NCBI GenBank assembly: GCA_016188785.1
Contig: JACPHD010000001.1
Span: 26,300-90,299 of the forward strand
Reading direction: 5' to 3'
DNA: 64,000 nt
Origin: Parcubacteria group bacterium
Lineage (GTDB): Bacteria > Patescibacteriota > Patescibacteriia > Patescibacteriales > GWC2-42-12
A program made the position numbers and the translations under genes. Below are positions 6,906-63,916 of the stretch, one piece after another. Each line of letters starts with the position of its first letter. Positions within the stretch are counted from its first letter, which is position 1. The notes beneath the pieces are model-generated. The model was not told the origin of the DNA and did not search any database. It saw only the letters and a program-made list of their open reading frames with translations.

Positions 6906-7595
6906 TTATTGATTAACCAATATAGCGATAAACAGCTCTTTTAAAATTTTCAAGCCGCTGAAAAAACTTTGTCCGAAATTATGGTAAATAACCCTGACTG
7001 GTATTTCTTTAACTTTAAAATTATGTTTTTTGACTTCAAACATTATTTCCGAGCAGTGCGCCATCCGATCCTGCTGCCAGCTAATCCGGCGCGCCGCCTC
7101 GCGCGACATGGCCCTAAAACCGCTCTGCGGATCAGTCAAATTAATGTTAAAAAATACTTTATTCACCGCTCTGGCCAAAGGCATGATAAAATATTTTTTA
7201 AAAACTGGCATGGCCGAACTATGCTCGCCATTAAGAAAACGGGAGCCGAAAACAACCTCGGCCGCGCCGGCTTTAATCGGTGCCGCGATACATTCTAGGT
7301 CGCGCGCTAAAAACTGGCCATCAGCGTCAAAATGAATAATTATGTCAGCGCCCTTAGCCAGACCATAGGCCGTGCCGGTTCTTAAAGCCGCGCCCTGGCC
7401 GCGGTTGATTATATGCTTAAGTAAAACCACGCCTTCTTCTGTAATAAAATCAGCCGTTTTGTCGGTTGAGCCGTCATCAACAATAACAAGTTTATCAACC
7501 AAGGGGTATACCTGGTTGATTATTTCCGCTATATTTTTTTCTTCATTAAACGCCGGAATAACGCAAAAAATTTTTACCCCATTAGAAGTTCGCAT
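6906..7595 (-). CDS. GT2 polyprenyl-phosphate glycosyltransferase (DPM1-like)
   Basis: 'VIPAFNEEKNI...VIVDDGSTDKT' motifs. Start taken at MRTSNGVK (7595). Confidence 0.8.
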   Translation of the reverse strand: MRTSNGVKIFCVIPAFNEEKNIAEIINQVYPLVDKLVIVDDGSTDKTADFITEEGVVLLKHIINRGQGAALRTGTAYGLAKGADIIIHFDADGQFLARDLECIAAPIKAGAAEVVFGSRFLNGEHSSAMPVFKKYFIMPLARAVNKVFFNINLTDPQSGFRAMSREAARRISWQQDRMAHCSEIMFEVKKHNFKVKEIPVRVIYHNFGQSFFSGLKILKELFIAILVNQ

Positions 7596-7657
7596 AAAAA
7601 TTATTCTACAGAACATTATCTTATTCTTTCCCGTTAAAATTATAACTTCTAACGGGG
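7577..7657. repeat. Inverted-repeat element ACCCC(A/G)TTAGAAGTT...AACTTCTAACGGGG enclosing the GT2 start codon (copy 1)
   Basis: Arms at 7577-7590 and 7644-7657. Near-identical to the copy at 20897-20978. Confidence 0.7.
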
Positions 7658-7665
7658 TTCATATT

Positions 7666-8746: not shown

Positions 8747-10870
8747 TCACTTCTTAATTCTTATACTGCCGACGTTTACTCCGCCGCTAAAGTTTTCCTC
8801 ATAAGCGTAAAACGAACCCACAATTTTGCCATTAGCTTTAAAAACGCGGACATGAGGCGCTCCTCCCGGGCCGGCGGCGGCCACGATTTCGTCCAGGCCG
8901 TCGTTGTCAACATCAGCTTTGGCTAAATTGACGCCGCCGCGGAAATTACTGTTAAAAGCAAAAAAATGCGACAGCAAATTTCCTTTACCGTCAAAAAATT
9001 TAACATGCGGCCCGCCGCCTTTTTCCGGCGCGGCCACAATGTCTTCATGATAGCTGCCGGAGCCGTTTCTGATTCTGGCTGAAGCAACCTTAACGCCGCC
9101 GCGGGAAGTTTTAGGATAAGCTAAAAAGCGCCTGGCTAAAACGCCGCTGGCTTTAAAAATTCTGATTTCGGGAATCTTTCCGGCCGCCAAGCCGGTTATA
9201 ATTTCAGCTTGGCCGTCGCCGTCTAGATCGCCGGCCGCGATATTCAAGCCGCCTCTGAATTTACTGTCGTAAGCGTAAAACGAACCCAAAAACTGGCCGC
9301 GGCCGTTAAAAATTTTTACTTCTGAATCCCCGCCCTGAGCCTCTACGGCGATAATTTCATCACTACCGTCATTATTGATGTCGGCGCTGGCGATATTTAC
9401 GCCGCCGCGGAAATTATTCTTAAAAGCAAAAAATTGCCTAAGCAGTTCTCCTTTAACATTAAAAATTTTTATATGCGGCCCGCCGCCTGATCCGGCCGCG
9501 GTGATAATTTCTTGAGTGCCATCGCCGTTTATATCTCCGGCGGCAAAATTGACGCTGCCTTTAAAATTGCCGTAAGCCTGAAATTCAGTATCTTTTTTAC
9601 CATCCTGATTAGTAATTTTTACCGGGCCGGCTGAACCAATTTTCGGACCGACTAATAATTTTTCAATTTTATTATTTAATAAGCTCTTGACGTAATTAAC
9701 CGCCGCCGCTAGGTTTAATCGGCCATTGCCCAGGCGGCCTAAATAATTCGGATTTACCCGGCTGATATTATCCGCGTTAGCCAATAGCGCTTGGATGATT
9801 TCGCTTCTATTTAGCGCCGGGTTGGCCGCGGCTATTAGCGCCAGAGCGCCGCTCACCATAGGCACGGCTACGGAAGTGCCGGACCAATAGCCATCATAAT
9901 ATTTATTAAAAGGCTGATCTTTTATATAATTATCAGGCGAATAGACCACGGCGCTAAAAACGCTGACTCCGGGCGCGGCAATATCAATGCATTTACTGCC
10001 AAAGCTGGAAAAGGCTGTTTTCTGGTCCATGGTATCGGTCGCGGCTACGCCAATTACCCGATTTTCGCCGCTCGAGCCGTCCAGACAAACCGGATACATG
10101 GGAGTTTCATCTAAATTATAACCATCGCTCTGCCCGACTTCATTGCCTCCGGCGGCGACTACGATTAAGCCGGCGTCATAAGCGCGTTTAATCGCTTCAT
10201 CAAGCCCCTGGCTATAGCCAAAGCCGACAAAACTTAAATTGATAATATTGGCGCCGTTGGCAATGGCGTAATCAATCGCTTTAATAACCTTGGAAGCGCT
10301 GCCCTCGCCCGTATCATCTAAAATTTTAAGCGGCATAATTTTAGCTTGCCAGGTTATACCGGTAACGCCGGCGGCGTTATTACCAGCCGCCGCGGCAATG
10401 CCGGCAATAATAGTGCCGTGTAAAACGCCATCTTCGGAAAAACCCGGCTTAAACTTTGGCGCCGGATCAGGTACATTATTGACAAAATCCCAGCCATTGA
10501 CATCATCAATAAAACCGTTCTTATCATCATCAATCTTATTACCGGCGATTTCTTTTTTATTCAGCCAAATATTGCCTTGTAAATCAGGGTGATTGATTTG
10601 CACGCCTGAATCCAAAATCGCGATAACAACGTCCGGGCTTTCCCTGATATTATCCCAGGCTTCAGTGGCTTTAATTTTCTGCAAATACCATTGATTATTA
10701 AAAAAAGCGTCAGACGGTATTATGGAAGCATGATAAGTCTGGTCTGGCTCGGCGGATAAAGCATGGTAGCCGGAAAATATAACAAATATAATTATTACGA
10801 CTAAAAATATAATAAAAAAAGATGTTTTTTTATTCTTCACCCCGTTAGATATTACTGATAATTTTTGCAT
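8747..10870 (-). CDS. Secreted S8 subtilisin-like peptidase with C-terminal FG-GAP/VCBS repeats
   Basis: Catalytic triad D ('DSGVQINHPDL'), H ('HGTIIAGI'), S ('GTSVAVPMVSG'). N-terminal TM/signal. Repeated 'DINGDG/DLDGDG...GGGPHIK(I/F)F' motifs. Confidence 0.75.
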   Translation of the reverse strand: MQKLSVISNGVKNKKTSFFIIFLVVIIIFVIFSGYHALSAEPDQTYHASIIPSDAFFNNQWYLQKIKATEAWDNIRESPDVVIAILDSGVQINHPDLQGNIWLNKKEIAGNKIDDDKNGFIDDVNGWDFVNNVPDPAPKFKPGFSEDGVLHGTIIAGIAAAAGNNAAGVTGITWQAKIMPLKILDDTGEGSASKVIKAIDYAIANGANIINLSFVGFGYSQGLDEAIKRAYDAGLIVVAAGGNEVGQSDGYNLDETPMYPVCLDGSSGENRVIGVAATDTMDQKTAFSSFGSKCIDIAAPGVSVFSAVVYSPDNYIKDQPFNKYYDGYWSGTSVAVPMVSGALALIAAANPALNRSEIIQALLANADNISRVNPNYLGRLGNGRLNLAAAVNYVKSLLNNKIEKLLVGPKIGSAGPVKITNQDGKKDTEFQAYGNFKGSVNFAAGDINGDGTQEIITAAGSGGGPHIKIFNVKGELLRQFFAFKNNFRGGVNIASADINNDGSDEIIAVEAQGGDSEVKIFNGRGQFLGSFYAYDSKFRGGLNIAAGDLDGDGQAEIITGLAAGKIPEIRIFKASGVLARRFLAYPKTSRGGVKVASARIRNGSGSYHEDIVAAPEKGGGPHVKFFDGKGNLLSHFFAFNSNFRGGVNLAKADVDNDGLDEIVAAAGPGGAPHVRVFKANGKIVGSFYAYEENFSGGVNVGSIRIKK

Positions 10871-10918
10871 AGAATATAAAATTTACTAAGTTTAAATAAA
10901 GACGATATCTAACGGGGT
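10839..10918. repeat. Inverted-repeat element ACCCCGTTAGATAT...ATATCTAACGGGGT enclosing the S8 start codon (copy 3)
   Basis: Arms at 10839-10852 and 10905-10918. Confidence 0.65.
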
Positions 10919-10932
10919 AAATAACATCTTTA

Positions 10933-19112: not shown

Positions 19113-20915
19113 TTATTGATTCTGTTGAATAAATGTCACAACAATATCACCCTCGCTTAATCCTGACAAAACTTCAACCAAGCCGTTATCGCCGCGCAAA
19201 CCCAGGCTTACCGGAACTTCTTTAAGCTCCTGGCCGGACAGCAGTCTGGCGAATCGGCCATGGTTTTTTTCAACCACCGCCCGCGCCGGTATGATTAAAA
19301 CCCCGGGGTTTTTCGCTGTGATGATATTAGTGTTAGCGGTCATGCCTGATTTTACGGCCAGCTTTTTTCCGTCAAAATTAATTTTCACTTTGTAATAGAC
19401 TACCTCCTGAATCACGGTTTCAGCCGGCTCAATAAAATTAACCTGGCCGGCGAATTTAATATCCTGGCCGAAAGCGTCCAAGGTAATTTCCACCGGATTA
19501 TTGATCGCCACTTTGGTTATGTCAGCTTCGGAAACATTAACTTCAATTTGAAAATTACTTGCGCCCAAAAGAGAGAAAACCGTCTTACCTGGCGCGAACT
19601 GTTCGCCGGCTTCATAATTTTTTTTAGTAATAGCGCCGTCCGCCGGCGCTTTAATGATATTATTGGCGATTTGATTTCTTATTAAATCCAGGGCGGCTTG
19701 GGCCTGGCTTACTTGCGCCTGGCTCAAATTTATATCTTGAGCGCGCGCACCGGCCTTAAGCTGATTGAGCTGGGCTAAGGCCACCTGCCAGGCGCGGTAA
19801 GCATTATCAACCTTGGCGCTGGCCCCGGCCAGCTTTTCGGCCGCCTGGGCCTCGGCCGTAGCCAGCGCGTCTTTAGCCGCCGCCAGCGCATTGTTTAAAT
19901 TATTAAGCGCATCATTTAAATTATTCTGCGCGGTCTCTAAAGCGGAAATTCCGGTTGTCACGTTGGTTTGCTGGGCGCTCACATTGGTTTTGTAAGTATC
20001 AAGTTTAGTTTGCGTAAAACTGCCGCCGGCAATACTGGCTTCCAGCAAACTATAGCCGTCTTTTAAAGCGCTAAAAGTCTGATTTAGAGCCTTTGCAGTA
20101 TTATCCAGCGCCTGATTTATAGCCGAGCTGGACTGATTTAATTTAGCCGAAATTAAACTGACTTTAGCCGCGGCTAAAGCCGTATTAGCCTGGCCATAGC
20201 TATTCTTGGTGACGGCTAGCAGAGCGGCATTACCCGCGCCTAAAAAATTTTTAGCGTCGTTGTCTGTTAAAATAGTGTTAATATTATCCAGGGCGTTAGC
20301 GGCCACGGGAATTTTCGCCTCCATCACGGTTAAGGCCGCTACCTGGTAGTTTTTCACGGTTTGCTGTTCTTTAGTAATAAGGCCGCCTGAAGTTAAAGAC
20401 AAATCATCAAGATTTTTCTGCGCTTGAACTATACTTAAGGCAGTCGTGTTTTTTATTTTTTCCGCTTCATTCACGGCCGAAGCATAAGCGGTTTTCGCTT
20501 GGTCTACGTTGGCCTGGCTGACGGCTAACTCGCTGGCCGTGGCGCCGGCTAAAAGTTTGGCTAAATTAGCCTGGGCCACGCGCAGATTAGCTTGGGCTTC
20601 TTTGTCTTTTAAGGCCAAATCGCTTAAATCCAGCTCGGCCAAGACCTGATCTTTTTTAACTTTATCCCCGACCGCGACGTATATTTTAGCGATTTTACCC
20701 GTGGCCGGAAAATTCAAATCTATTTCCTGGTTAGATTTAACCGTTCCGGTCTCGCTCACGGTCTGGATTAAATCGCCGCGCGCGGCTTTAGCCGTAATAT
20801 ACTGGACGGCCGGTTTTTTATTTAAAAAGAAGTAAAAGCCAGCGCCCGCGGCTAGTAAAACTAAAATTATAAAATATTTATTTTTAAAAATTTTTACCCC
20901 GTTAGAAGTTTGCAT
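19113..20915 (-). CDS. HlyD/MacA-family periplasmic adaptor with a long Ala-rich coiled coil
   Basis: N-terminal TM, biotinyl-lipoyl-like 'VKSNQEIDL...GDKVKKDQVLAEL', long coiled coil, C-terminal beta-barrel. Confidence 0.7.
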   Translation of the reverse strand: MQTSNGVKIFKNKYFIILVLLAAGAGFYFFLNKKPAVQYITAKAARGDLIQTVSETGTVKSNQEIDLNFPATGKIAKIYVAVGDKVKKDQVLAELDLSDLALKDKEAQANLRVAQANLAKLLAGATASELAVSQANVDQAKTAYASAVNEAEKIKNTTALSIVQAQKNLDDLSLTSGGLITKEQQTVKNYQVAALTVMEAKIPVAANALDNINTILTDNDAKNFLGAGNAALLAVTKNSYGQANTALAAAKVSLISAKLNQSSSAINQALDNTAKALNQTFSALKDGYSLLEASIAGGSFTQTKLDTYKTNVSAQQTNVTTGISALETAQNNLNDALNNLNNALAAAKDALATAEAQAAEKLAGASAKVDNAYRAWQVALAQLNQLKAGARAQDINLSQAQVSQAQAALDLIRNQIANNIIKAPADGAITKKNYEAGEQFAPGKTVFSLLGASNFQIEVNVSEADITKVAINNPVEITLDAFGQDIKFAGQVNFIEPAETVIQEVVYYKVKINFDGKKLAVKSGMTANTNIITAKNPGVLIIPARAVVEKNHGRFARLLSGQELKEVPVSLGLRGDNGLVEVLSGLSEGDIVVTFIQQNQ

Positions 20916-20978
20916 AATAATTTAATCCTAGAAATATTACTTTATTCTTTCCCGTTAAAATTATAACTTCTAACGGGG
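20897..20978. repeat. Inverted-repeat element ACCCCGTTAGAAGTT...AACTTCTAACGGGG enclosing the HlyD start codon (copy 2)
   Basis: Arms at 20897-20910 and 20965-20978. Confidence 0.7.
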
Positions 20979-25626: not shown

Positions 25627-25727
25627 GAGCTTGCGCTATTTTGACTATTTTTTTTATTTATGCTTTAATAAATATTAACTGGCTCTGTCACCTTTTAACT
25701 TCAAAACTCTTAACAGGGGGATGAAAA

Positions 25728-26222
25728 ATGTTAGAGGAAAAAGCGGTAAGAGAGTTCTTTTTAGAAACTAACAAATGGATCTTAGAGGAAAAACCTACTC
25801 CAATAATGAACACGTATTCCTGCTTTTCCCAGGCGCTAATACATAATAATGGCGCGCTTCATTATATGAATGTCTGGACAGAAACAGAAGAAAAGAACGT
25901 TAGTCAGATCATTGGCCAGGTTCTTATCTGGCACCGAAAAAAAGGACCGCTTTGGGGAATGAATTACGACGGTTGGCAAAAGAATGACGAAAAGATAAAC
26001 GATCTGCGGAGCAATCTTCTGATAAAAACTTTATCAGGGGAAAAATATTTTCAACGTTCGGTCTCTGGATCTACAGTTGATGGGTTGTTGTATCAAAACG
26101 AAATAGAAGGAGGATTTCAATTATTTGAAATTAAAACCTCAATTTTTCCTAATAACGACCATGTTAATCCTGTAACCCGCTTCACCTATCACGGCCGCGC
26201 CTTAGTCAACCTCGGTCTCTAA
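25728..26222 (+). CDS. Hypothetical protein
   Basis: 164-aa ORF; no motifs recognised. Confidence 0.35.
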   Translation: MLEEKAVREFFLETNKWILEEKPTPIMNTYSCFSQALIHNNGALHYMNVWTETEEKNVSQIIGQVLIWHRKKGPLWGMNYDGWQKNDEKINDLRSNLLIKTLSGEKYFQRSVSGSTVDGLLYQNEIEGGFQLFEIKTSIFPNNDHVNPVTRFTYHGRALVNLGL

Positions 26223-26323
26223 CCCTTTCTTCCCGCCGGCTTGAACGTTCGGCGGGAATTTTTTTAAAAGAAAAGACTGGACGCGGTTAATAGCATCCAG
26301 TCCTGATTTATTGGCAAGCAAAA

Positions 26324-27811
26324 TTATTTAATGTGCAATTCGGTTACCTTGCGAAAATGATAACCGTTAATAGCCGACTCCACGGCCAAAGGAAATAGAC
26401 GCGGCCGGCAGAATAAAACCCAGGCCAATAGGGCCCAAAATTGCCGCCGTCCACCCGATTCTGCCAACCCCAAATGCCAGCAGGCGCGGAAAAAGGCTAA
26501 AACACGCTGGCAATTGATCGGCTGACTAACTTTCGGAGTTGGAAATTCTCTTAAAAACGTCCTTACCCGCCGGTAGTAATTGGGCGGCGAGTATAAGTAC
26601 TTCATCACGAAACCATAACCGTCGCGCAATACCTTAAAACCCATAAGCGGCACGATGTTGGTACTGCCGTCCACGTTGTCGCCGGACATTTGCCCGGTAA
26701 GCCGGTTAGCCAGCTTAAGCCTCTGCCAAAGCTTAGTGCCATAAGGCGCGCTAAGCATGCCAACCATAGCCATAGTAATACCGCTGCGCATGACAAAGAC
26801 AATCTGGCGATTGAAAATAGTAGCCGGATCATCCGGGTCAAAGCCGACGATAAAACCGCCCATTACTAAAAGGCCGGCCCGCTGTAAAGTTTCCACATCA
26901 GTCGCCAGATTACGCCCCATATTCTGCGTCTTGCGACAGTCTGATAGGGCCGCTTGATTCGGCGTCTCAATGCCGATGAAAACCGAATCAAATCCGGCCT
27001 CCACTATCAGGCTAACTAATTCGTTGTCTTGAGCCAGATTGATAGAAACTTGAGTGAAGAAAGGCGCGCGATAGTTCACTTTTTTTTGCCAAGCAATAAG
27101 CGCCGGCAGAAGTTCAGCCTTGAGACGCTTCTTGTCGCCGATTAAATTGTCATCAACGAAAAACACCTTGCCTCGCCAGCCGGCGGCCCATAATTGGTCA
27201 AGCTCGGCAATTACTTGCCTGGCGGTTTTAACGCGCGGACTATGGCCGAACAGCCGGGTCACGTCGCAGAATTCGCACTGAAACGGACAGCCGCGCGACC
27301 ATTGCACGCTCATGGAAGCGTAAGCCTCCATGTCTAAAAGGTCCCAGCGCGGAATAGCCGCCTGCTCCATGTCAGAAAATTCGCTGGAAGCATAGAGGCG
27401 CTTTAGTCTGCCTTGCGCCAAGTCGGCTAAAAAAAGCGGCAGGGTGATTTCCGCCTCATTAAGCACAAAATGATCCACCGCGGCAAAGGCCTCATGATCA
27501 ACCGTGAACAAGGGGCCGCCGGCCACGATTTTTTTTCCGGCTGAACTACAGCGAGCGATCAGCCGCTCGGCCGATGTTCGCTGTACCGCCATGGCGCTAA
27601 TAAAGACATAGTCAGCCCAATTCAGGTCATCATCAGTTAACGGTTCAACATTCAAATCAACTAAGCGCGCCTGCCAATCCGCGGGCAACATCGCCGCCAC
27701 GGTAATAAGACCAAGCGGCGGAAAAGCCGCCCGTTTGCGGATAAAGCGCAGAGCATACTTAAAACTCCAAAACGTGTCCGGATACTCCGGATAAACCAGT
27801 AAAATTTTCAT
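26324..27811 (-). CDS. B12-binding radical SAM enzyme (class B, CxxxCxxC = CPFQCEFC)
   Basis: N-terminal cobalamin-binding-like domain, rSAM cysteine triad, C-terminal DUF4070-like region. About 55% GC, far above neighbours. AGGAG Shine-Dalgarno. Confidence 0.85.
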   Translation of the reverse strand: MKILLVYPEYPDTFWSFKYALRFIRKRAAFPPLGLITVAAMLPADWQARLVDLNVEPLTDDDLNWADYVFISAMAVQRTSAERLIARCSSAGKKIVAGGPLFTVDHEAFAAVDHFVLNEAEITLPLFLADLAQGRLKRLYASSEFSDMEQAAIPRWDLLDMEAYASMSVQWSRGCPFQCEFCDVTRLFGHSPRVKTARQVIAELDQLWAAGWRGKVFFVDDNLIGDKKRLKAELLPALIAWQKKVNYRAPFFTQVSINLAQDNELVSLIVEAGFDSVFIGIETPNQAALSDCRKTQNMGRNLATDVETLQRAGLLVMGGFIVGFDPDDPATIFNRQIVFVMRSGITMAMVGMLSAPYGTKLWQRLKLANRLTGQMSGDNVDGSTNIVPLMGFKVLRDGYGFVMKYLYSPPNYYRRVRTFLREFPTPKVSQPINCQRVLAFFRACWHLGLAESGGRRQFWALLAWVLFCRPRLFPLAVESAINGYHFRKVTELHIK

Positions 27812-27862
27812 CTGTCTTACTCCTCTTGGTTGTTAGTTAACTCAATATTCCAGCGAACATAA

Positions 27863-28151: not shown

Positions 28152-28448
28152 CTAGCCATGCCACTTTTTTGCCGTCCTCGGCGGCATTGATGGCTTTGCT
28201 TCTCTTAAAGCTTTAAGAAAGTTTTCCCTTTTTTCTTCGGTTCTTTCAACTATTTCCCGAAGCAGAAAAAATTTTTCTTCAAGCGAAAGTATCACTTGGG
28301 CAAGAGTGAGAAATTGTTCCACCCTTACCAATCTTTCTTGAGAAGACATTGAACGTCCGATAGAAAAAAGAGAAGTTAACTCCGAGCTAACACGGTCAAC
28401 AAATTGGAGCAATTTGTTGACCGTTTCTTCTAATAACCCTTTTTCCAT
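28152..28448 (-). CDS. Hypothetical helical protein
   Basis: 98-aa ORF downstream of the NYN gene. Confidence 0.3.
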   Translation of the reverse strand: MEKGLLEETVNKLLQFVDRVSSELTSLFSIGRSMSSQERLVRVEQFLTLAQVILSLEEKFFLLREIVERTEEKRENFLKALREAKPSMPPRTAKKWHG

Positions 28449-28573
28449 TTTATCTCCCTCCTTGTTCCATAATTATATTATAGCAGAAAAATTATTATTT
28501 TTCCATTAAAATTTTTGATTTTCCCTTTAATTATTTTATGGAAATATTACTTATTTAGCCGTCTTGATAAGAA

Positions 28574-42646: not shown

Positions 42647-42708
42647 AAATTTTGTTTTATTAGTTATTTAATTTGTCATAATCTTATCTAAAAAATTATA
42701 ATTTGTAA

Positions 42709-42763
42709 ACCCCGTTAGAAAAAGTGCTGCTTGCCCCGCTTAGAAATTTATTTCTAACGGGGT
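42709..42763. repeat. Inverted-repeat element ACCCCGTTAGAA...TTTCTAACGGGGT (copy 4) upstream of the 214-aa gene
   Basis: Read directly. Confidence 0.65.
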
Positions 42764-42773
42764 AAAGACAGGC

Positions 42774-51399: not shown

Positions 51400-51591
51400 G
51401 ATAACTCCTCCTGGCCGTTTTCCGCGGCAAATTTTTTCCTCCGTTAAAAACAAAATTAACTCCAACCCCACAACTCTGACTATTCTTTTTAAGAATCCTC
51501 GCCTATTCTTTAAAGATCAGCCAGCAGTAAACTGACTATAAAACTTATAGCCAATTTACTGCTGACTCATCTTATTTTTTAAAGTACAATC

Positions 51592-54348
51592 TTAATCAGC
51601 CTCGTCAACATTAAATACAACGGTATCGGTGGGCGCGCCGTTAACTATGGCGTTAACGCCTGAAAGCTGACCCCGGGCAGTTATGTCCCGGATAAATAAA
51701 CTAATCTGGTCGCCAACCGCGGTTTTATCCGCGTCTAAAAACAAATCTAAAATAAGGTTTTCCCCCGGATCTAAGCTAAGGCCGCCAAAACTTATTTCAT
51801 TAACATCCGCCACCGGCCGGGACAGCCGCGAGCCAGCTTGCCTTAACCGGCCATTATCATCAGTAAAAGCAAACTTTAAATTACTAAAGCCATTATTGTT
51901 GGATAAATTGCCGGCCGAACCGAAAGAATTTATAATAGCGCGGTCTAATCTTACTTTCTCCGCCGCATTATTACTAAGATTGAAACTGGCGATTTTATTT
52001 TCTTTCTGCCCTTTAACCGCGTTGCCGCCGCTCAAACTTTTAATCTGTAAAACCGTCTGCGTAATCTCAACTTCCGGGCTGGCCACGCCCCGATTATTAA
52101 TCGCGGCCGGAATTTTACTATTCTCCCCCATGGCCCTGGCGCTTTCTACAAAAAATTTCACCGTGCCGTCCGCGCTAAGGTCCAGATCAGCTTTAACAAA
52201 AATGTCAACCGAATCGCCGGCTCTTACCCCGGCCCTTAAATCGGCGAACTTATATGAATCCGCGTTTGGCTCGGCAATTATTTCGCTAATTCTGGAGCCG
52301 CCGCGATACAGGGCTAAATTACTGAAACCATTGGCAAAATTTACCGGCGTAAAACCGGCCACATTGGCCACGGTTAGGTTGGTGATAATTAAATCTTCCT
52401 CTTTGACCGCTTCGGCCTTAAAGGCCGCCAAGACCACCTGCTTTCTGCCGGCTACGGCTAATTCATTATCGCTGATTCGGCCGGCGAATAAATGAAGCGA
52501 AGGTTCAATTACCTGTATTTTCGGCCCGGCCAATAAAACATTATCACGGCGCAAAACATTATCATCAGCAATATTATAATTTACACTTTTAATCAAAATC
52601 TGATAGCTGTCGCCGGACAAAGCCGTTTCCGGAATATGCGCCCTTAACTGGAATTTAATAGTTTTGCCTTTAGGCGCGTTAAAACCGCTTAAACTGATTT
52701 CCGCAAAATTACCGTCAACTTTTCTGCCGTCAACCAGGCCCAGCTCGGCCTTGTTTTGCGCGTCAAAAATTTTTACCGACTTGTCTAAAGCCGGCGTTTC
52801 GCCTGATCTTACGACTTGCAAAGTCAGGGAAGAAAGTTTTATGTCGCTGGTATTATTACGCAGTTCAAGCGAGCCTAAAAGCGCCTCTTCCTGGCCGGCA
52901 TAAATTAAACGTTCATTATCTTTTAAAGGACTGGCGGTTAAGAAAACCGGCGCCCGCTTGATTAAAAAATTATTAGCTTGGCCGCTTAAGGCCGGGTCAA
53001 TTTCCGTGAAAATGTCATAATTATTATCATCAAAAGCGCTTAGATCATATTTGCTGGCAAGAATAAATTTTACCGTGCGGTCTTCGCCGTTTATAATATC
53101 AACTTTAAGAGTTAAATCCAGGGAATTATTTTTGCCTAAAAACAGGCCCCTAATAAAAACAAAGTCGGCTTTTTGGCCAGTCATGTTTCGGACTTGACCT
53201 ACGGTCCGTCCGTTGGCCGAGACTAAAGTTAAATTTTTTAAATCTTCCGGCCGGGCCGAACCCACGTTAGTTAAAGTGATTCTTTCAATCACGATGTCTT
53301 CGTTGCCGCTTACTTCGGTCAAGCGGAAAGCCGCCACGGCCTTATTAGTTGAACCGATAACCGCTTCCTGGCTGTTTGAATTCAAAACCAAAGGCGAGGC
53401 CTTAAGCCGGCCTAAATTATTAACCCCGTCAATTAGCTTGAATTCCGGGCCGAACTGAGGAAAATCTCCATTTAACGGAGCGTCAGCGTCAACCTGGCTA
53501 GCCTTGAGCAAACCGAATTTTAAAGTCTGGCCGAAAACGCCGCTAACCGGTTTTATATCGGCTTTTAAATAAAATATTTTCGCTTGACCGGCCGGAATAA
53601 CTAAAGGCTCGGCGCTTAAATTAAGATACAAGCGGCCATTGGTTAAACTATTTTTTTCGCCTTTAACCTGGCCGGCTTGATCAGTTAAATAAAGCGCGTC
53701 AATAATATCGTCCGCGGACACGCCCTGGCGGGTAAAAGTAAGCGCCCTGACTTTAATGTCGCGCGCGAAAGATTCAAATATAAATGCCGCCACTATATTA
53801 GCGCGGCTGCTGGTCGGCAGATACGGTGAAGCCAGGGCCAGCGGCTTGGAAGTAATTACTAACCGGCCATTAGCCTCTTCGCCGGTTAATTCGCGATCAA
53901 GCGCGCCGGCCGCTTTAAGCCCGGAAAAATCAACCGGTTTATATTCATTAAGATCAGCGGCCAGAACAGTGACAATCTGATTCCATTTAAAGCCGGAGTC
54001 AATAAACTGCTGTTCGGATTTAATCAAGGCTTTTTGGCCGTTAACAATATAATAAACCGAACGGCTGTTCTTGATTTTAACTAATTTCAGTTCCGGCCAT
54101 TTATTTAATTCCGCGCTGCTGATAATTTTAATGTCGCTCCATTTATTGCCATAAGCCAAAAAAGCTTTACTGTTCACATAAGCTTTTTTAAGCCCGCGCG
54201 CGTGATCCAAATAATATACTACCGGACTATCAGCGGTTTTAACCTGTTTAATTTTAGGATTAACAACGCCATAAGCCGCCCAGGCATTTGGCGCGCTAAT
54301 AAGCAAATAAATAATAGTAATTATGGCTAATTTTAAAAAATTTAACAT
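51592..54348 (-). CDS. Large secreted surface (S-layer-like) protein
   Basis: Signal peptide 'IIYLLISAPNAWA'. 918 aa, beta-rich repetitive. Confidence 0.55.
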   Translation of the reverse strand: MLNFLKLAIITIIYLLISAPNAWAAYGVVNPKIKQVKTADSPVVYYLDHARGLKKAYVNSKAFLAYGNKWSDIKIISSAELNKWPELKLVKIKNSRSVYYIVNGQKALIKSEQQFIDSGFKWNQIVTVLAADLNEYKPVDFSGLKAAGALDRELTGEEANGRLVITSKPLALASPYLPTSSRANIVAAFIFESFARDIKVRALTFTRQGVSADDIIDALYLTDQAGQVKGEKNSLTNGRLYLNLSAEPLVIPAGQAKIFYLKADIKPVSGVFGQTLKFGLLKASQVDADAPLNGDFPQFGPEFKLIDGVNNLGRLKASPLVLNSNSQEAVIGSTNKAVAAFRLTEVSGNEDIVIERITLTNVGSARPEDLKNLTLVSANGRTVGQVRNMTGQKADFVFIRGLFLGKNNSLDLTLKVDIINGEDRTVKFILASKYDLSAFDDNNYDIFTEIDPALSGQANNFLIKRAPVFLTASPLKDNERLIYAGQEEALLGSLELRNNTSDIKLSSLTLQVVRSGETPALDKSVKIFDAQNKAELGLVDGRKVDGNFAEISLSGFNAPKGKTIKFQLRAHIPETALSGDSYQILIKSVNYNIADDNVLRRDNVLLAGPKIQVIEPSLHLFAGRISDNELAVAGRKQVVLAAFKAEAVKEEDLIITNLTVANVAGFTPVNFANGFSNLALYRGGSRISEIIAEPNADSYKFADLRAGVRAGDSVDIFVKADLDLSADGTVKFFVESARAMGENSKIPAAINNRGVASPEVEITQTVLQIKSLSGGNAVKGQKENKIASFNLSNNAAEKVRLDRAIINSFGSAGNLSNNNGFSNLKFAFTDDNGRLRQAGSRLSRPVADVNEISFGGLSLDPGENLILDLFLDADKTAVGDQISLFIRDITARGQLSGVNAIVNGAPTDTVVFNVDEAD

Positions 54349-54360
54349 ATAATATAATTT

Positions 54361-54424
54361 ACCCCGTTAGAAAAATCTTTGACCAAACCAGGATAAACCC
54401 TGTTAAAAAAATTTCTAACTGGGT
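54361..54424. repeat. Inverted-repeat element ACCCCGTTAGAAAAAT...ATTTCTAACTGGGT (copy 5) upstream of the surface-protein gene
   Basis: Read directly. Confidence 0.6.
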
Positions 54425-54480
54425 AAATAATTTTAATAACTTATTACTATATCATATATTCAATATTATGTCAAACGAGC

Positions 54481-54509
54481 TTGACATAATACGCTGCTTT
54501 TACTAATAT
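54481..54509 (+). promoter_or_regulatory. Promoter TTGACA-N17-TAATAT, with two leader hairpins downstream (54521-54540, 54551-54571)
   Basis: Read directly; -35 lies inside palindrome ATGTCAAACGAGCTTGACAT. Confidence 0.55.
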
Positions 54510-54597
54510 TTATAGCAAAAGCGGCGAATGATGCCGCTTAACAAAAACAACCGGGCGTAAAAAATGCCCGGAAAATTTAATTTAGGAGGGTTAAAAA

Positions 54598-54798
54598 ATG
54601 AAGGAGAATAAGGAGAATAAGGTAGACGTTGTCTTGGCTCTAAACGCCGATCGGAAAAACACGGAACAAGCCACCGCGCCAGATCAGTGTACCTGCGGCA
54701 ACGATTGCTCTTGCCAGAAAAAAAACAACCAGCAAACCACAAGAGTAATCATAAGACGGCTAGGGTCACCGCTCGACGTGCCGCTCTTTTACCAGTAA
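54598..54798 (+). CDS. Small Cys-rich protein (CTCGNDCSC), 66 aa
   Basis: AGGAGGG Shine-Dalgarno 7 nt upstream; intrinsic terminator follows. Confidence 0.5.
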   Translation: MKENKENKVDVVLALNADRKNTEQATAPDQCTCGNDCSCQKKNNQQTTRVIIRRLGSPLDVPLFYQ

Positions 54799-54815
54799 AA
54801 TAAATAAGACTTCAA

Positions 54816-54856
54816 GGCCGGCAGTTCTTCTCTGAACTGCCGGCTCGCTTTTTTTG
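54816..54856 (+). terminator. Rho-independent terminator
   Basis: GGCCGGCAGTTC-TTCTCT-GAACTGCCGGC then a T-run. Confidence 0.7.
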
Positions 54857-54950
54857 ATTGGGTAGTATTTATAAAATTTTCGTGCGAGGACTGTTTGAGA
54901 CTGCCGCAGGCAGACGAGTTCCGCAGTAGAAAATTTTATAAATACTACCC
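54851..54950. repeat. 100-bp element bounded by 22-bp inverted repeats GGGTAGTATTTATAAAATTTTC
   Basis: Arms at 54851-54872 and 54929-54950. Confidence 0.6.
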
Positions 54951-54980
54951 AATAATCAAATGTCAATAATCTCTTGCCAT

Positions 54981-55595
54981 TTAACTTAATCCAACCTCAT
55001 CAATCACCACTAATTTTCGGCTGTCTAAAATGCCGTAAAGAAATATGTCCGTGATATCGCGGCGGTACTTAAACTCCTGGCTGTCAAAAACCGTGAAATT
55101 AATTTCTTTGCCCAACTCAACTTCCAGCTCCCTAATTAGTTTTACTAACTTGATTTTATTAATCTTGCCGACAATCAGTATATCAATTAAAGTATTTGGA
55201 TTATTAACAAAAATACCGGTCAAAATCAATAATTTTACTTTGCCGATGGCATTAAGCTTGCGCACAAAATCTTTTTCATACAAAATCTGCGCCTTAACGA
55301 TTAAAGCCTTAATCTCGTCAAACAAAACAAAATTAGGATTAGCGCGAAAATATTTTTTTTCCTGGCCGCCGGCCGCTTCTTTCTCGCCTTTCGTCGCTTC
55401 TTCTTTCATATCTGATTTTATATCTGACGTTAAAATGCCGAACTTTTCCAAGTTCTCCAGTTCGCGGCGCACCGAATTAAGCTGCAGTTTTAAGTCGCGC
55501 GATAATTGCCTGATATAAAACTTTTCCGCCGGATTAAGCAGAAATAATTTTAATATTTTAACCCTGGAATTTGAGCCGAATAATTTTTCAAGCAT
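54981..55595 (-). CDS. Winged-helix transcriptional regulator-like protein
   Basis: N-terminal 'RVKILKLFLLNPAEKFYIRQLSRDLKLQLNSVRRELENLEKFGIL'. Confidence 0.45.
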   Translation of the reverse strand: MLEKLFGSNSRVKILKLFLLNPAEKFYIRQLSRDLKLQLNSVRRELENLEKFGILTSDIKSDMKEEATKGEKEAAGGQEKKYFRANPNFVLFDEIKALIVKAQILYEKDFVRKLNAIGKVKLLILTGIFVNNPNTLIDILIVGKINKIKLVKLIRELEVELGKEINFTVFDSQEFKYRRDITDIFLYGILDSRKLVVIDEVGLS

Positions 55596-62588: not shown

Positions 62589-63614
62589 TTATAGACGAAC
62601 CAGAAAAGCGCCATAATGTGCACCTGCGCCAACAGCGCAGAATAGCACTAAATCATTCTCCTTAACGATACCGTTACGCCGATCCTCATTGAGAAGTACT
62701 AAGGTGCTTGCGGCCGACAAATTGCCATACTTATCTACATTAACGGCCACTCGCTCAAATGGCACCTCTAGAAAGTTGGCGAAACTTTTCAGGACCCAAT
62801 AATTAGCCTGGTGAAAATAAAATCGTTTGACTTCATCTAATTCAAACGAGTATTTTTTCATCAGACCGTTAAGGCTACGCTTCATCAAGGCGGGAAATAA
62901 TTCTTTTACCGCCTTTGCGTCAATCTCGTAAACGGGAGTATCTGCCCCGCTCTTTTTGTGATAATACATGAGCGGATGAGATCCGTCCGCTCCATAATAA
63001 GTGGCAATAATTCCCGTTTTGCCATTTAAACTTCGTTGCAGAATCATGGCCCCGGCACCATCACCAAAAACATAGGCACTCAGCCATGCTCCCGTCTTGA
63101 TATAAGAATCAAGATTATTAAATTGGCCCGACGGTTTATTACTGGCCACCACAAGGATGTTTATCTTATCATCTCCTTTAATCATATCATTGGAAATACC
63201 AATCGCTTGCATGGTACCACCACATCCACTGTCAATTTCAAACGCAAACGCATGAGAACTGAGTTCAAGTCGGCTATGAAGCTCAATTGCCGCTCTACTA
63301 AAATGACAGTATTCCTCAAGATCCTGAGTACAGGTGACATACCATAAACCATCAATTTCGTCAGGTTTCAAGTCCGCATCCTTGATGGCTTCGAGAGCAG
63401 CGAAATATGCCATATCCAGGTCGCCGATCTCGTGTTTATCAGCAGTACCAATCAGCGATTCTATCCTGCCTGCAAACCTCCTTTCTTTTATACCAAGATT
63501 CTTATAGATCCACTCGGAATTTTTCTGTTTTACAATTGAAACCATTTCTTCATTTGTATAAATCTCCTTGGGAATAAAACTACCAGTTCCTGCAATCCTG
63601 ACTCTTTTACACAT
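62589..63614 (-). CDS. 3-oxoacyl-ACP synthase III-like (FabH/KAS III or type III PKS-like thiolase fold)
   Basis: Active-site Cys in 'EIDSGCGGTM'; His/Asn region 'FHQANYWVL'. AGGAGG Shine-Dalgarno. Confidence 0.7.
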   Translation of the reverse strand: MCKRVRIAGTGSFIPKEIYTNEEMVSIVKQKNSEWIYKNLGIKERRFAGRIESLIGTADKHEIGDLDMAYFAALEAIKDADLKPDEIDGLWYVTCTQDLEEYCHFSRAAIELHSRLELSSHAFAFEIDSGCGGTMQAIGISNDMIKGDDKINILVVASNKPSGQFNNLDSYIKTGAWLSAYVFGDGAGAMILQRSLNGKTGIIATYYGADGSHPLMYYHKKSGADTPVYEIDAKAVKELFPALMKRSLNGLMKKYSFELDEVKRFYFHQANYWVLKSFANFLEVPFERVAVNVDKYGNLSAASTLVLLNEDRRNGIVKENDLVLFCAVGAGAHYGAFLVRL

Positions 63615-63916
63615 TGTATACCTCCTTTTATATTATATACAAACTTCCTTAGAATTGTTAGCCAGAACATTTTAACGAGCCAACCGCTACCGCCCACGGC
63701 TTTAACCAAAAGCCATCAGCCAATAACAATTTTTATCTTAATTTTAACGGCGTTGCGTTAAAACTAAATTAAAAAGCGTTATTATAACGCTTTCACCATA
63801 GCCGAAAATGTTGGTTTTGTCAAAAATTTTTAATTTTTGGCTAAAATTTTATTAGGATCTATTTTTATTTTTAAGTTTTCATGATATTATATTAACATTA
63901 AGAATAAACCCAACAA

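Follow-up and report, generated by a model that had tools for sequence, protein, structure and literature searches.

Is a stretch of 380 bases that reads as a complete miniature gene indeed a gene, and if so, where did it come from and what might it encode? This question is raised by a short chromosomal spacer in a Patescibacterium, which lies within a window of 64,000 nt (positions 26,300 to 90,299 of contig JACPHD010000001.1, assembly GCA_016188785.1, Parcubacteria group bacterium). The unit carries promoter-like boxes of its own, a ribosome-binding site, a single ORF, and a terminator, all read from the sequence. An initial annotation had drawn attention to these signals. The promoter boxes, two leader hairpins, a Shine-Dalgarno sequence, a 66-codon ORF with the motif CTCGNDCSC, and a terminator with its T-run were all found where it had placed them (Table 1).

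Table 1. Features of the cassette and its surroundings (window coordinates unless another locus is named)
Feature	Position	Strand	Remark
918-aa gene, N-terminal signal-like segment	51592-54348	-	Divergent from cassette; no Pfam match
Promoter of 918-aa gene, TTGACA-17-TATAGT with upstream TG	54446-54474	-	11/12 match; sole part of spacer kept in relatives
Perfect 11-bp inverted repeat TATTATGTCAA-ACGAGC-TTGACATAATA (N6 spacer)	54464-54491	.	Links -35 boxes of both divergent promoters
Cassette: promoter -10 region, leader, ORF, terminator	54476-54856 (381 bp)	+	Missing from equivalent spacer in all relatives (BLAST, alignment)
Sigma-70-like promoter TTGACA-17-TAATAT	TTGACA 54481-54486; TAATAT 54504-54509	+	10/12 consensus match; putative function
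Hairpin 1, AAGCGGC/GCCGCTT	54519-54539	+	Starts about 3 nt past predicted transcription start
Hairpin 2, CCGGGCGT/ATGCCCGG	54551-54571	+	One G.T pair; AACAAAAACAA directly before
Weak third hairpin, A-U/G-U	54576-54595	+	Half-encloses Shine-Dalgarno; absent from initial annotation
Shine-Dalgarno AGGAGG	54584-54589	+	8 nt upstream of ATG at 54598
ORF, 66 aa	54598-54798, stop codon included	+	Product MKENKENKVDVVLALNADRKNTEQATAPDQCTCGNDCSCQKKNNQQTTRVIIRRLGSPLDVPLFYQ
Intrinsic terminator	Stem 54816-54845; T7 54849-54855	+	12 bp (8 G-C), 6-nt loop
Neighboring hairpin, about 100 nt (54856-54958), with 3' flank motif ATGTCAATAAT	54856-54970	+	Outside cassette; part of downstream region of 204-aa gene
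204-aa winged-helix-like gene	54981-55595	-	Convergent; synteny anchor
Copies of neighboring hairpin family	L005:4093-4213; L006:14003-14122; L012:15457-15638; about 80 metagenome loci L039-L157
Copies of second repeat family	54358-54427; 42706-42766; 20893-20975; 10836-10921; 7573-7661		Intergenic or in 5' regions of minus-strand genes

Signals of a complete small gene

The AT-rich 2.5 kb around the cassette is rich in promoter-like sites (18 observed versus 6.9 ± 3.4 expected), and therefore the match of the promoter to its consensus is not decisive by itself. The combination of translation signals is far harder to obtain by chance. An ATG-initiated ORF of at least 66 codons arose in 3.1% of 5000 dinucleotide shuffles of the transcript, and a Shine-Dalgarno core upstream of the longest ORF arose in 1.9%, while the two occurred jointly in 0.08% (p about 0.0008). 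Because this conjunction is so rare among shuffles, the arrangement appears to have been built as a gene. The leader has a predicted folding energy of -27.5 kcal/mol, compared with -13.8 ± 2.8 in shuffles (z = -4.9), and the complete 341-nt transcript is likewise more structured than its shuffles (z = -3.6). An A7 run on the other side of the terminator makes it potentially bidirectional. Consensus scans, folding, and shuffles thus bear out the proposal that this is a self-contained unit, with a gene-like set of promoter-like boxes, Shine-Dalgarno sequence, ORF, and strong terminator.

The composition of the cassette sets it apart from the genes around it. Its GC content is 0.49 and its GC3 is 0.60, versus gene means of 0.40 and 0.41 in a genome of 39.5% GC. 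Of the six frames, the annotated one scores highest for codon usage (0.048 per codon, versus -0.32 to -0.85 for the rest), but this value is low for a gene, falling at the 3.9th percentile of 66-codon windows taken from the genes of the genome.

The mode of translation initiation is also unusual for this genome. A Shine-Dalgarno sequence precedes 5 of the 53 start sites in the window, that of the cassette ORF included. Among long genes it is recognizable in 4 of 52, which encode a KAS III-like protein, a B12/radical SAM protein (DUF4070), a DUF5680 protein, and a DNA methylase. Such a sequence also leads the 98-aa ORF at 28152-28448. The hexamer AGGAGG is not enriched in the window, where 12 occurrences were seen versus 14.9 expected. 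The presence of a Shine-Dalgarno sequence may be a marker of acquired genes in this host. As side observations, the accessory-looking genes that are led in this manner lie at 62589-63626, 28152-28462, 26324-27830, and 25710-26222, and most gene starts in the window have AT-rich or TATAAT-like sequence upstream.

Just past the start codon, the 9-nt repeat AAGGAGAAT occurs twice in tandem (54601-54618). Comparison of repeat copy number among the window (54601-54622) and two public contigs (L001:2629-2820 and L002:130-321) revealed a strain variant of 63 aa, in which one AAGGAGAAT unit fewer is present and the residues K-E-N are removed in frame. The variant also carries one synonymous third-position change (GCG to GCA at 54678), a single SNP that gives no power for a dN/dS estimate. 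Each AAGGAGAAT unit happens to hold the Shine-Dalgarno-like sequence AAGGAG.

A lineage-specific insertion

Relatives of the locus were gathered by scanning the 204-aa protein encoded downstream against one genome per species. This yielded 34 loci with 37-92% identity, all from Patescibacteria/Parcubacteria MAGs, several of which are named Candidatus Falkowbacteria. In the nearest relatives with the two genes still side by side, the flanking gene is about 73-92% identical. When the whole spacer was compared with the 34 related loci by BLAST, only positions 54423-54475 were conserved. Spacer comparison and alignment took in ten loci (L004, L005, L006, L008, L009, L010, L012, L018, L019, and L020), in all of which the two genes are adjacent and the next gene begins with MxNxLKLA, as does the 918-aa gene in the window. 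The spacer in these relatives is approximately 100 bp long and consists of a promoter of the 918-aa type and one A-run/GC terminator hairpin, which leaves an alignment gap of about 380 nt. No counterpart of the 381 bp of the cassette was found in 583 kb of related DNA.

Independent assemblies from three sequencing runs/samples each show the cassette joined to the 918-aa gene without a break. On its other side, the arms of the neighboring hairpin are unique to the window copy and are perfectly complementary across the join to the 204-aa side. An assembly artefact can accordingly be ruled out. An exact lookup of the 204-aa protein, made in search of a strain free of the cassette, returned only the same strain from five runs of one project, and all contigs recovered in this way end inside the neighboring hairpin element.

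The initial annotation had stated that a lack of conservation of the ORF among relatives would speak against its reading. Indeed, both the ORF and its leader are missing from every related locus and every database searched. Because the ORF is unconserved everywhere searched, it is a lineage-specific orphan and not a member of a conserved gene family. Birth of the gene de novo from local intergenic DNA is rejected because the relatives hold no DNA at the cassette site from which it could have evolved. The atypical composition, the translation signal, and the absence from relatives instead point to recent acquisition from a donor, no sequence of which was found in the collections searched.

The junction with the host DNA has a distinctive form. 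The left arm of the perfect inverted repeat that links the two divergent promoters is the -35 region of the 918-aa gene promoter, which is conserved in relatives, and its right arm is the -35 box of the cassette promoter, which is located in the new DNA. A perfect 11-nt match at such close range is unlikely to arise by chance (about 1e-6 per position by our own estimate). The palindrome suggests either the scar of a small inverted duplication that would have created a new promoter at the junction or an operator shared by the two genes.

The organization of the cassette resembles that of phage morons, with which it shares a small single ORF, promoter-like boxes and a strong terminator of its own, restriction to one lineage, an empty junction in relatives, and a composition atypical of the host. 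Unlike a moron, it resides in a chromosomal spacer of a Patescibacterium and not in a prophage, and it has no phage genes nearby and no phage or viral match. The domains of the neighboring genes, which further include a gene for a 761-aa protein and, about 3 kb away, rplL and rplJ, revealed no phage or mobile-element genes near the cassette.

The explanation that we favor, to which we would give roughly even chances, is that an orphan cassette of moron-like build was gained here recently, that its own promoter drives its transcription, and that the product is a soluble, hydrophilic peptide of 63-66 aa. According to this proposal, the cassette would have been inserted in a Falkowbacteria-like Patescibacterium between the conserved winged-helix-like gene and the gene for the 918-aa signal-peptide protein. 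Its sigma-70 promoter is predicted to fire at about position 54516. The hairpins near the 5' end would stabilize the 82-nt leader and, read on the opposite strand, would also halt transcripts that run through from the convergent gene. The cassette is probably translated, and the Shine-Dalgarno sequence would drive synthesis of the soluble hydrophilic peptide.

The most serious competitor is that the cassette is a neutral passenger, meaning a once-functional foreign mini-gene or fragment that was inserted recently, is intact only through its youth, and has no role in the host. Its confinement to one lineage with near-zero diversity would be expected of such a passenger, and so would codon usage that fits the host poorly, an atypical GC3, a Shine-Dalgarno-led start that is unusual for the genome, and the two other small insertions in the same spacer of the same lineage. 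However, all four expression signals are intact, the -35 box and the host promoter together make up an 11-bp palindrome without mismatches, which suggests integration into local control, and the repeat polymorphism is in frame. Reduced CPR genomes also seldom retain useless DNA, which may weigh against a passenger as well. We therefore regard this explanation as somewhat unlikely while still deserving of attention.

The leader hairpins read on both strands

The hairpins between the promoter and the ORF were originally viewed as leader structures of the plus-strand transcript, for which a riboswitch covariance search had been recommended. No described family in Rfam 15 gave a relevant match, either at the gathering threshold or at E up to 10, and no homologous leader was found in the collections searched. 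Scans of the full window and, with permissive settings (E up to 10), of positions 54300-55000 against Rfam 15 gave only spurious miRNA-type hairpin matches on the neighboring element, and ARAGORN found no tmRNA.

A second reading emerges when the opposite strand is considered. An A-run precedes each leader hairpin, and thus the minus strand reads each one as a hairpin followed by a U-run, as in a terminator. There, UUGUUUUUGUU comes after hairpin 2, and UUUUGCU comes after hairpin 1. On the plus strand no U-run follows hairpin 1 or hairpin 2, and therefore these structures are not attenuators. Relatives carry AACAAAAA and a GC hairpin at the same position, which MAFFT aligns onto hairpin 2, and the hairpin of the relatives is an intrinsic minus-strand terminator of the 204-aa gene. 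Because that terminator is placed alike, hairpin 1, hairpin 2, or both may terminate read-through from the 204-aa gene, either as the ancestral element or as its replacement.

The G.U pair that hairpin 2 forms on the plus strand corresponds to a C.A mismatch on the minus strand, where six G-C pairs remain around a 9-nt loop. This lone wobble pair is not enough to choose between the two strand readings, and the minus-strand terminator reading is equally good. On the plus strand, hairpin 1 could serve as a 5' stabilizer.

These structures invite the proposal that the functional product is RNA, either a small RNA approximately 340 nt long, which might have a dual function, or a convergent-transcription/termination module that would insulate the 918-aa promoter from 204-aa read-through. 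The excess of structure in the transcript fits this proposal, as do the minus-strand U-runs after hairpins 1 and 2, located where the terminator of the relatives resides, and the A7 and T7 runs on the two sides of the cassette terminator. Nevertheless, a Shine-Dalgarno sequence followed by an ATG and a 66-codon ORF would be very unlikely in a non-coding RNA, as the shuffles indicate, and a single 20-nt hairpin suffices in relatives. With neither an Rfam match nor a homologue in its favor, an RNA product seems improbable to us.

An orphan peptide with one cysteine cluster

The peptide has four cysteines among its 66 residues (6%), all in one cluster, C31-x-C-x3-C-x-C39 (CTCGNDCSC, encoded at 54688-54714). 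The cluster occupies residues 31-39, and 27 residues come after it. Both Phe and Tyr are present, and the C-terminus reads PLFYQ. An AlphaFold2 model made from the single sequence is of low confidence (pLDDT 57). A type I toxin was considered and excluded, since the peptide is hydrophilic and has no hydrophobic stretch.

Searches for homologues were extensive. None were found in about 15 billion proteins, in metagenome or viral contigs, in phages or plasmids, or in PDB, Pfam, and NCBIfam. A word-indexed search of 5.8 billion protein clusters returned only the peptide itself, its 63-aa strain variant, and low-complexity matches, and a full HMMER search of 1.84 billion representatives gave only the peptide, the strain variant, and multi-stretch low-complexity noise. 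Scans of JGI metagenome contigs and IMG/VR with back-translated patterns produced no match, and no match from the phage and plasmid collections rose above noise in tblastn or blastn searches. The NCBIfam search was likewise empty, as was the PDB search with phmmer at E up to 10, and the sole Pfam match at E up to 10 was a weak one to DUF7732 (E 0.07), with no metallothionein family among the results. Related or CPR loci, 1.27 Mb in total, contained no other small ORF with the pattern CxCx3CxC.

The peptide is thus an orphan outside any described family. Like other ORFan small proteins, it is shorter than 70 aa, has no homologue in the databases searched, and is confined to one species-level lineage. 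It differs from them in that its expression signals are unusually complete and canonical, and in that the boundaries of the insertion are clear by comparison with relatives.

The initial annotation had offered two possible identities for the cysteine motif. One was the core of a RiPP, with the caveat that no maturase is adjacent. The caveat is correct, because the neighboring winged-helix-like, 918-aa, and 761-aa proteins have no modifying-enzyme domain, and the only radical SAM gene, at 26324-27811, is 27 kb from the cassette. The identity itself did not hold up. That the cysteines of a RiPP precursor are modified by a maturase encoded elsewhere would agree with the small size of the peptide, with its clustered Cys and Ser/Thr, and with the existence of this radical SAM gene, which is B12-binding and also Shine-Dalgarno-led. 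This explanation is very improbable considering the distance of the enzyme, the lack of any precursor-family HMM match in Pfam or NCBIfam, and the lack of a similar peptide in the 1.27 Mb of related CPR DNA; the central rather than C-terminal position of the cysteine cluster may also speak against it.

The other proposed identity was a metallothionein. The spacing CxCGxxCxC recurs in plant type 1/2 and fungal Cu-metallothioneins, and the bacterial protein BmtA has CxCxxCxC. Metallothioneins typically contain about 15-30% Cys in several CxC/CxxC clusters and have few or no aromatic residues. The resemblance to the plant and fungal clusters is genuine within one 9-residue stretch, where the cysteine spacing and the Gly after the second Cys are the same, and this much of the proposal stands. 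The remainder does not, because the peptide has a single cluster, a low Cys content, aromatic residues, long flanks free of Cys, and no match to a metallothionein model. A true metallothionein, whether similar to bacterial BmtA/SmtA or of another type, is hardly credible for a peptide with one CxCGxxCxC motif, four Cys in 66 residues, Phe and Tyr, no Pfam family match at E up to 10, and no PDB relative. Because both candidacies fail, the peptide should not be used to seed either family.

The single CxCGxxCxC cluster is the only clue to what the peptide might do. In view of the recurrence of its spacing in plant and fungal metallothionein domains, our best guess, which we hold with low confidence, is that the four cysteines form one tetrathiolate metal site for Cu(I) or Zn(II), maybe bridging two chains. 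In its most far-reaching form, which we hold to be quite doubtful, the proposal would be that the gain of a donor-less mini-gene by an ultra-reduced CPR genome has been caught nearly as it happened, that the mini-gene acquired its promoter by mirroring the -35 box of the host (the palindrome possibly being a shared operator), and that it yields an abundant, metal- or redox-active tetracysteine micropeptide whose KEN repeat varies in length.

If the peptide is made, the cassette would provide a clean and datable case of a new expressed gene in the tiny, streamlined genome of a symbiont-type bacterium. It has known insertion boundaries, a strain polymorphism, and expression signals (a strong Shine-Dalgarno sequence) unlike the norm of the host. 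Re-examination of the locus was also worthwhile for other reasons: it corrected how the leader hairpins are read, and it exposed a neighboring hairpin family that is far more widespread than the cassette and under clear structural selection.

A widespread hairpin family next to the cassette

The element that begins where the cassette ends belongs to a large family. At least 120 metagenome stretches match its 18-nt core CGTRCGAGGACTGYTTGA, and the partner strand CGAGTTCCGCAGTAG is also present in 86 of 128 core matches across all loci. A covariance model uncovered more copies in L006, L012, L016, L019, and L035 and, at the site occupied in the window, in L005, all of them related MAGs. Some genomes hold several copies, with three in L059 and two each in L066 and L085. 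This family is absent from Rfam 15, and no description of it was found in the literature searched.

When 80 distinct copies were analyzed with RNAalifold, a hairpin of 39 pairs was obtained, 27 of which show compensatory double changes. The outer and apical stems covary freely, and no variation is seen in the internal loop (CUGUUUGA against GAGU). The invariant internal-loop sequences of the family are UUUUCGUGCGAGGACUGUUUGAG ... CGAGUUCCGCAGUAGAAAAUUU, an invariance that is partly built in by the search pattern. Of the two strands, the one with the motif gives the better fold in 77 of the 80 copies. The number of G.U pairs exceeds that of A.C pairs (228 versus 55), although 146 of the former come from three columns.

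In 54 of the 67 copies for which both flanks are available, both neighboring genes are on the opposite strand and only 10-30 nt away. The element thus fills short intercistronic spacers between co-oriented genes, mostly in antisense orientation; one copy adjoins rplF. For Patescibacteria, this is a candidate new family, either of structured RNAs or of REP-like elements. The candidate functions are an intercistronic hairpin for mRNA processing or stability, an antisense small RNA, and a REP-like element.

In some copies (L097:590-730, L102:1902-2040, and L012:15457-15638), UUCC and GCAG of the conserved 3' strand are separated by an additional GC-rich hairpin or by about 60 inserted nt (UUCC^GCAG). 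Optional inserted stems are typical of structured RNAs. A weak covariance-model match (19.8 bits, E 0.13) was noted at 51505-51569 on the minus strand, in the spacer between the gene for a 198-aa protein and the 918-aa gene. It may be a degenerate copy of the family or a mere hairpin.

Public short-read contigs break within the 18-nt core. L001, L003, and L158-L161 have ends at window positions 54884 and 54901. One contig crosses the core, L002 (373-1013), and continues into the rplF locus, where its right arm TTTAGCAC is unpaired with the left arm. Because these arms do not pair, we conclude that L002 is a chimera formed through a second genomic copy of the element.

A second repeat family in the window

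The window holds at least five occurrences of another repeat, whose inverted arms TTTACCCCGTTAGAAA and TTTCTAACGGGGTAAA are separated by about 40-75 nt. Two copies have the start codon and a TATAAT box between their arms. The copy nearest to the cassette, which relatives lack, falls within the 918-aa gene's 5' UTR. A few single TTTACCCCGTTAGAAA/TTTCTAACGGGGTAAA arms were also seen in other CPR loci.
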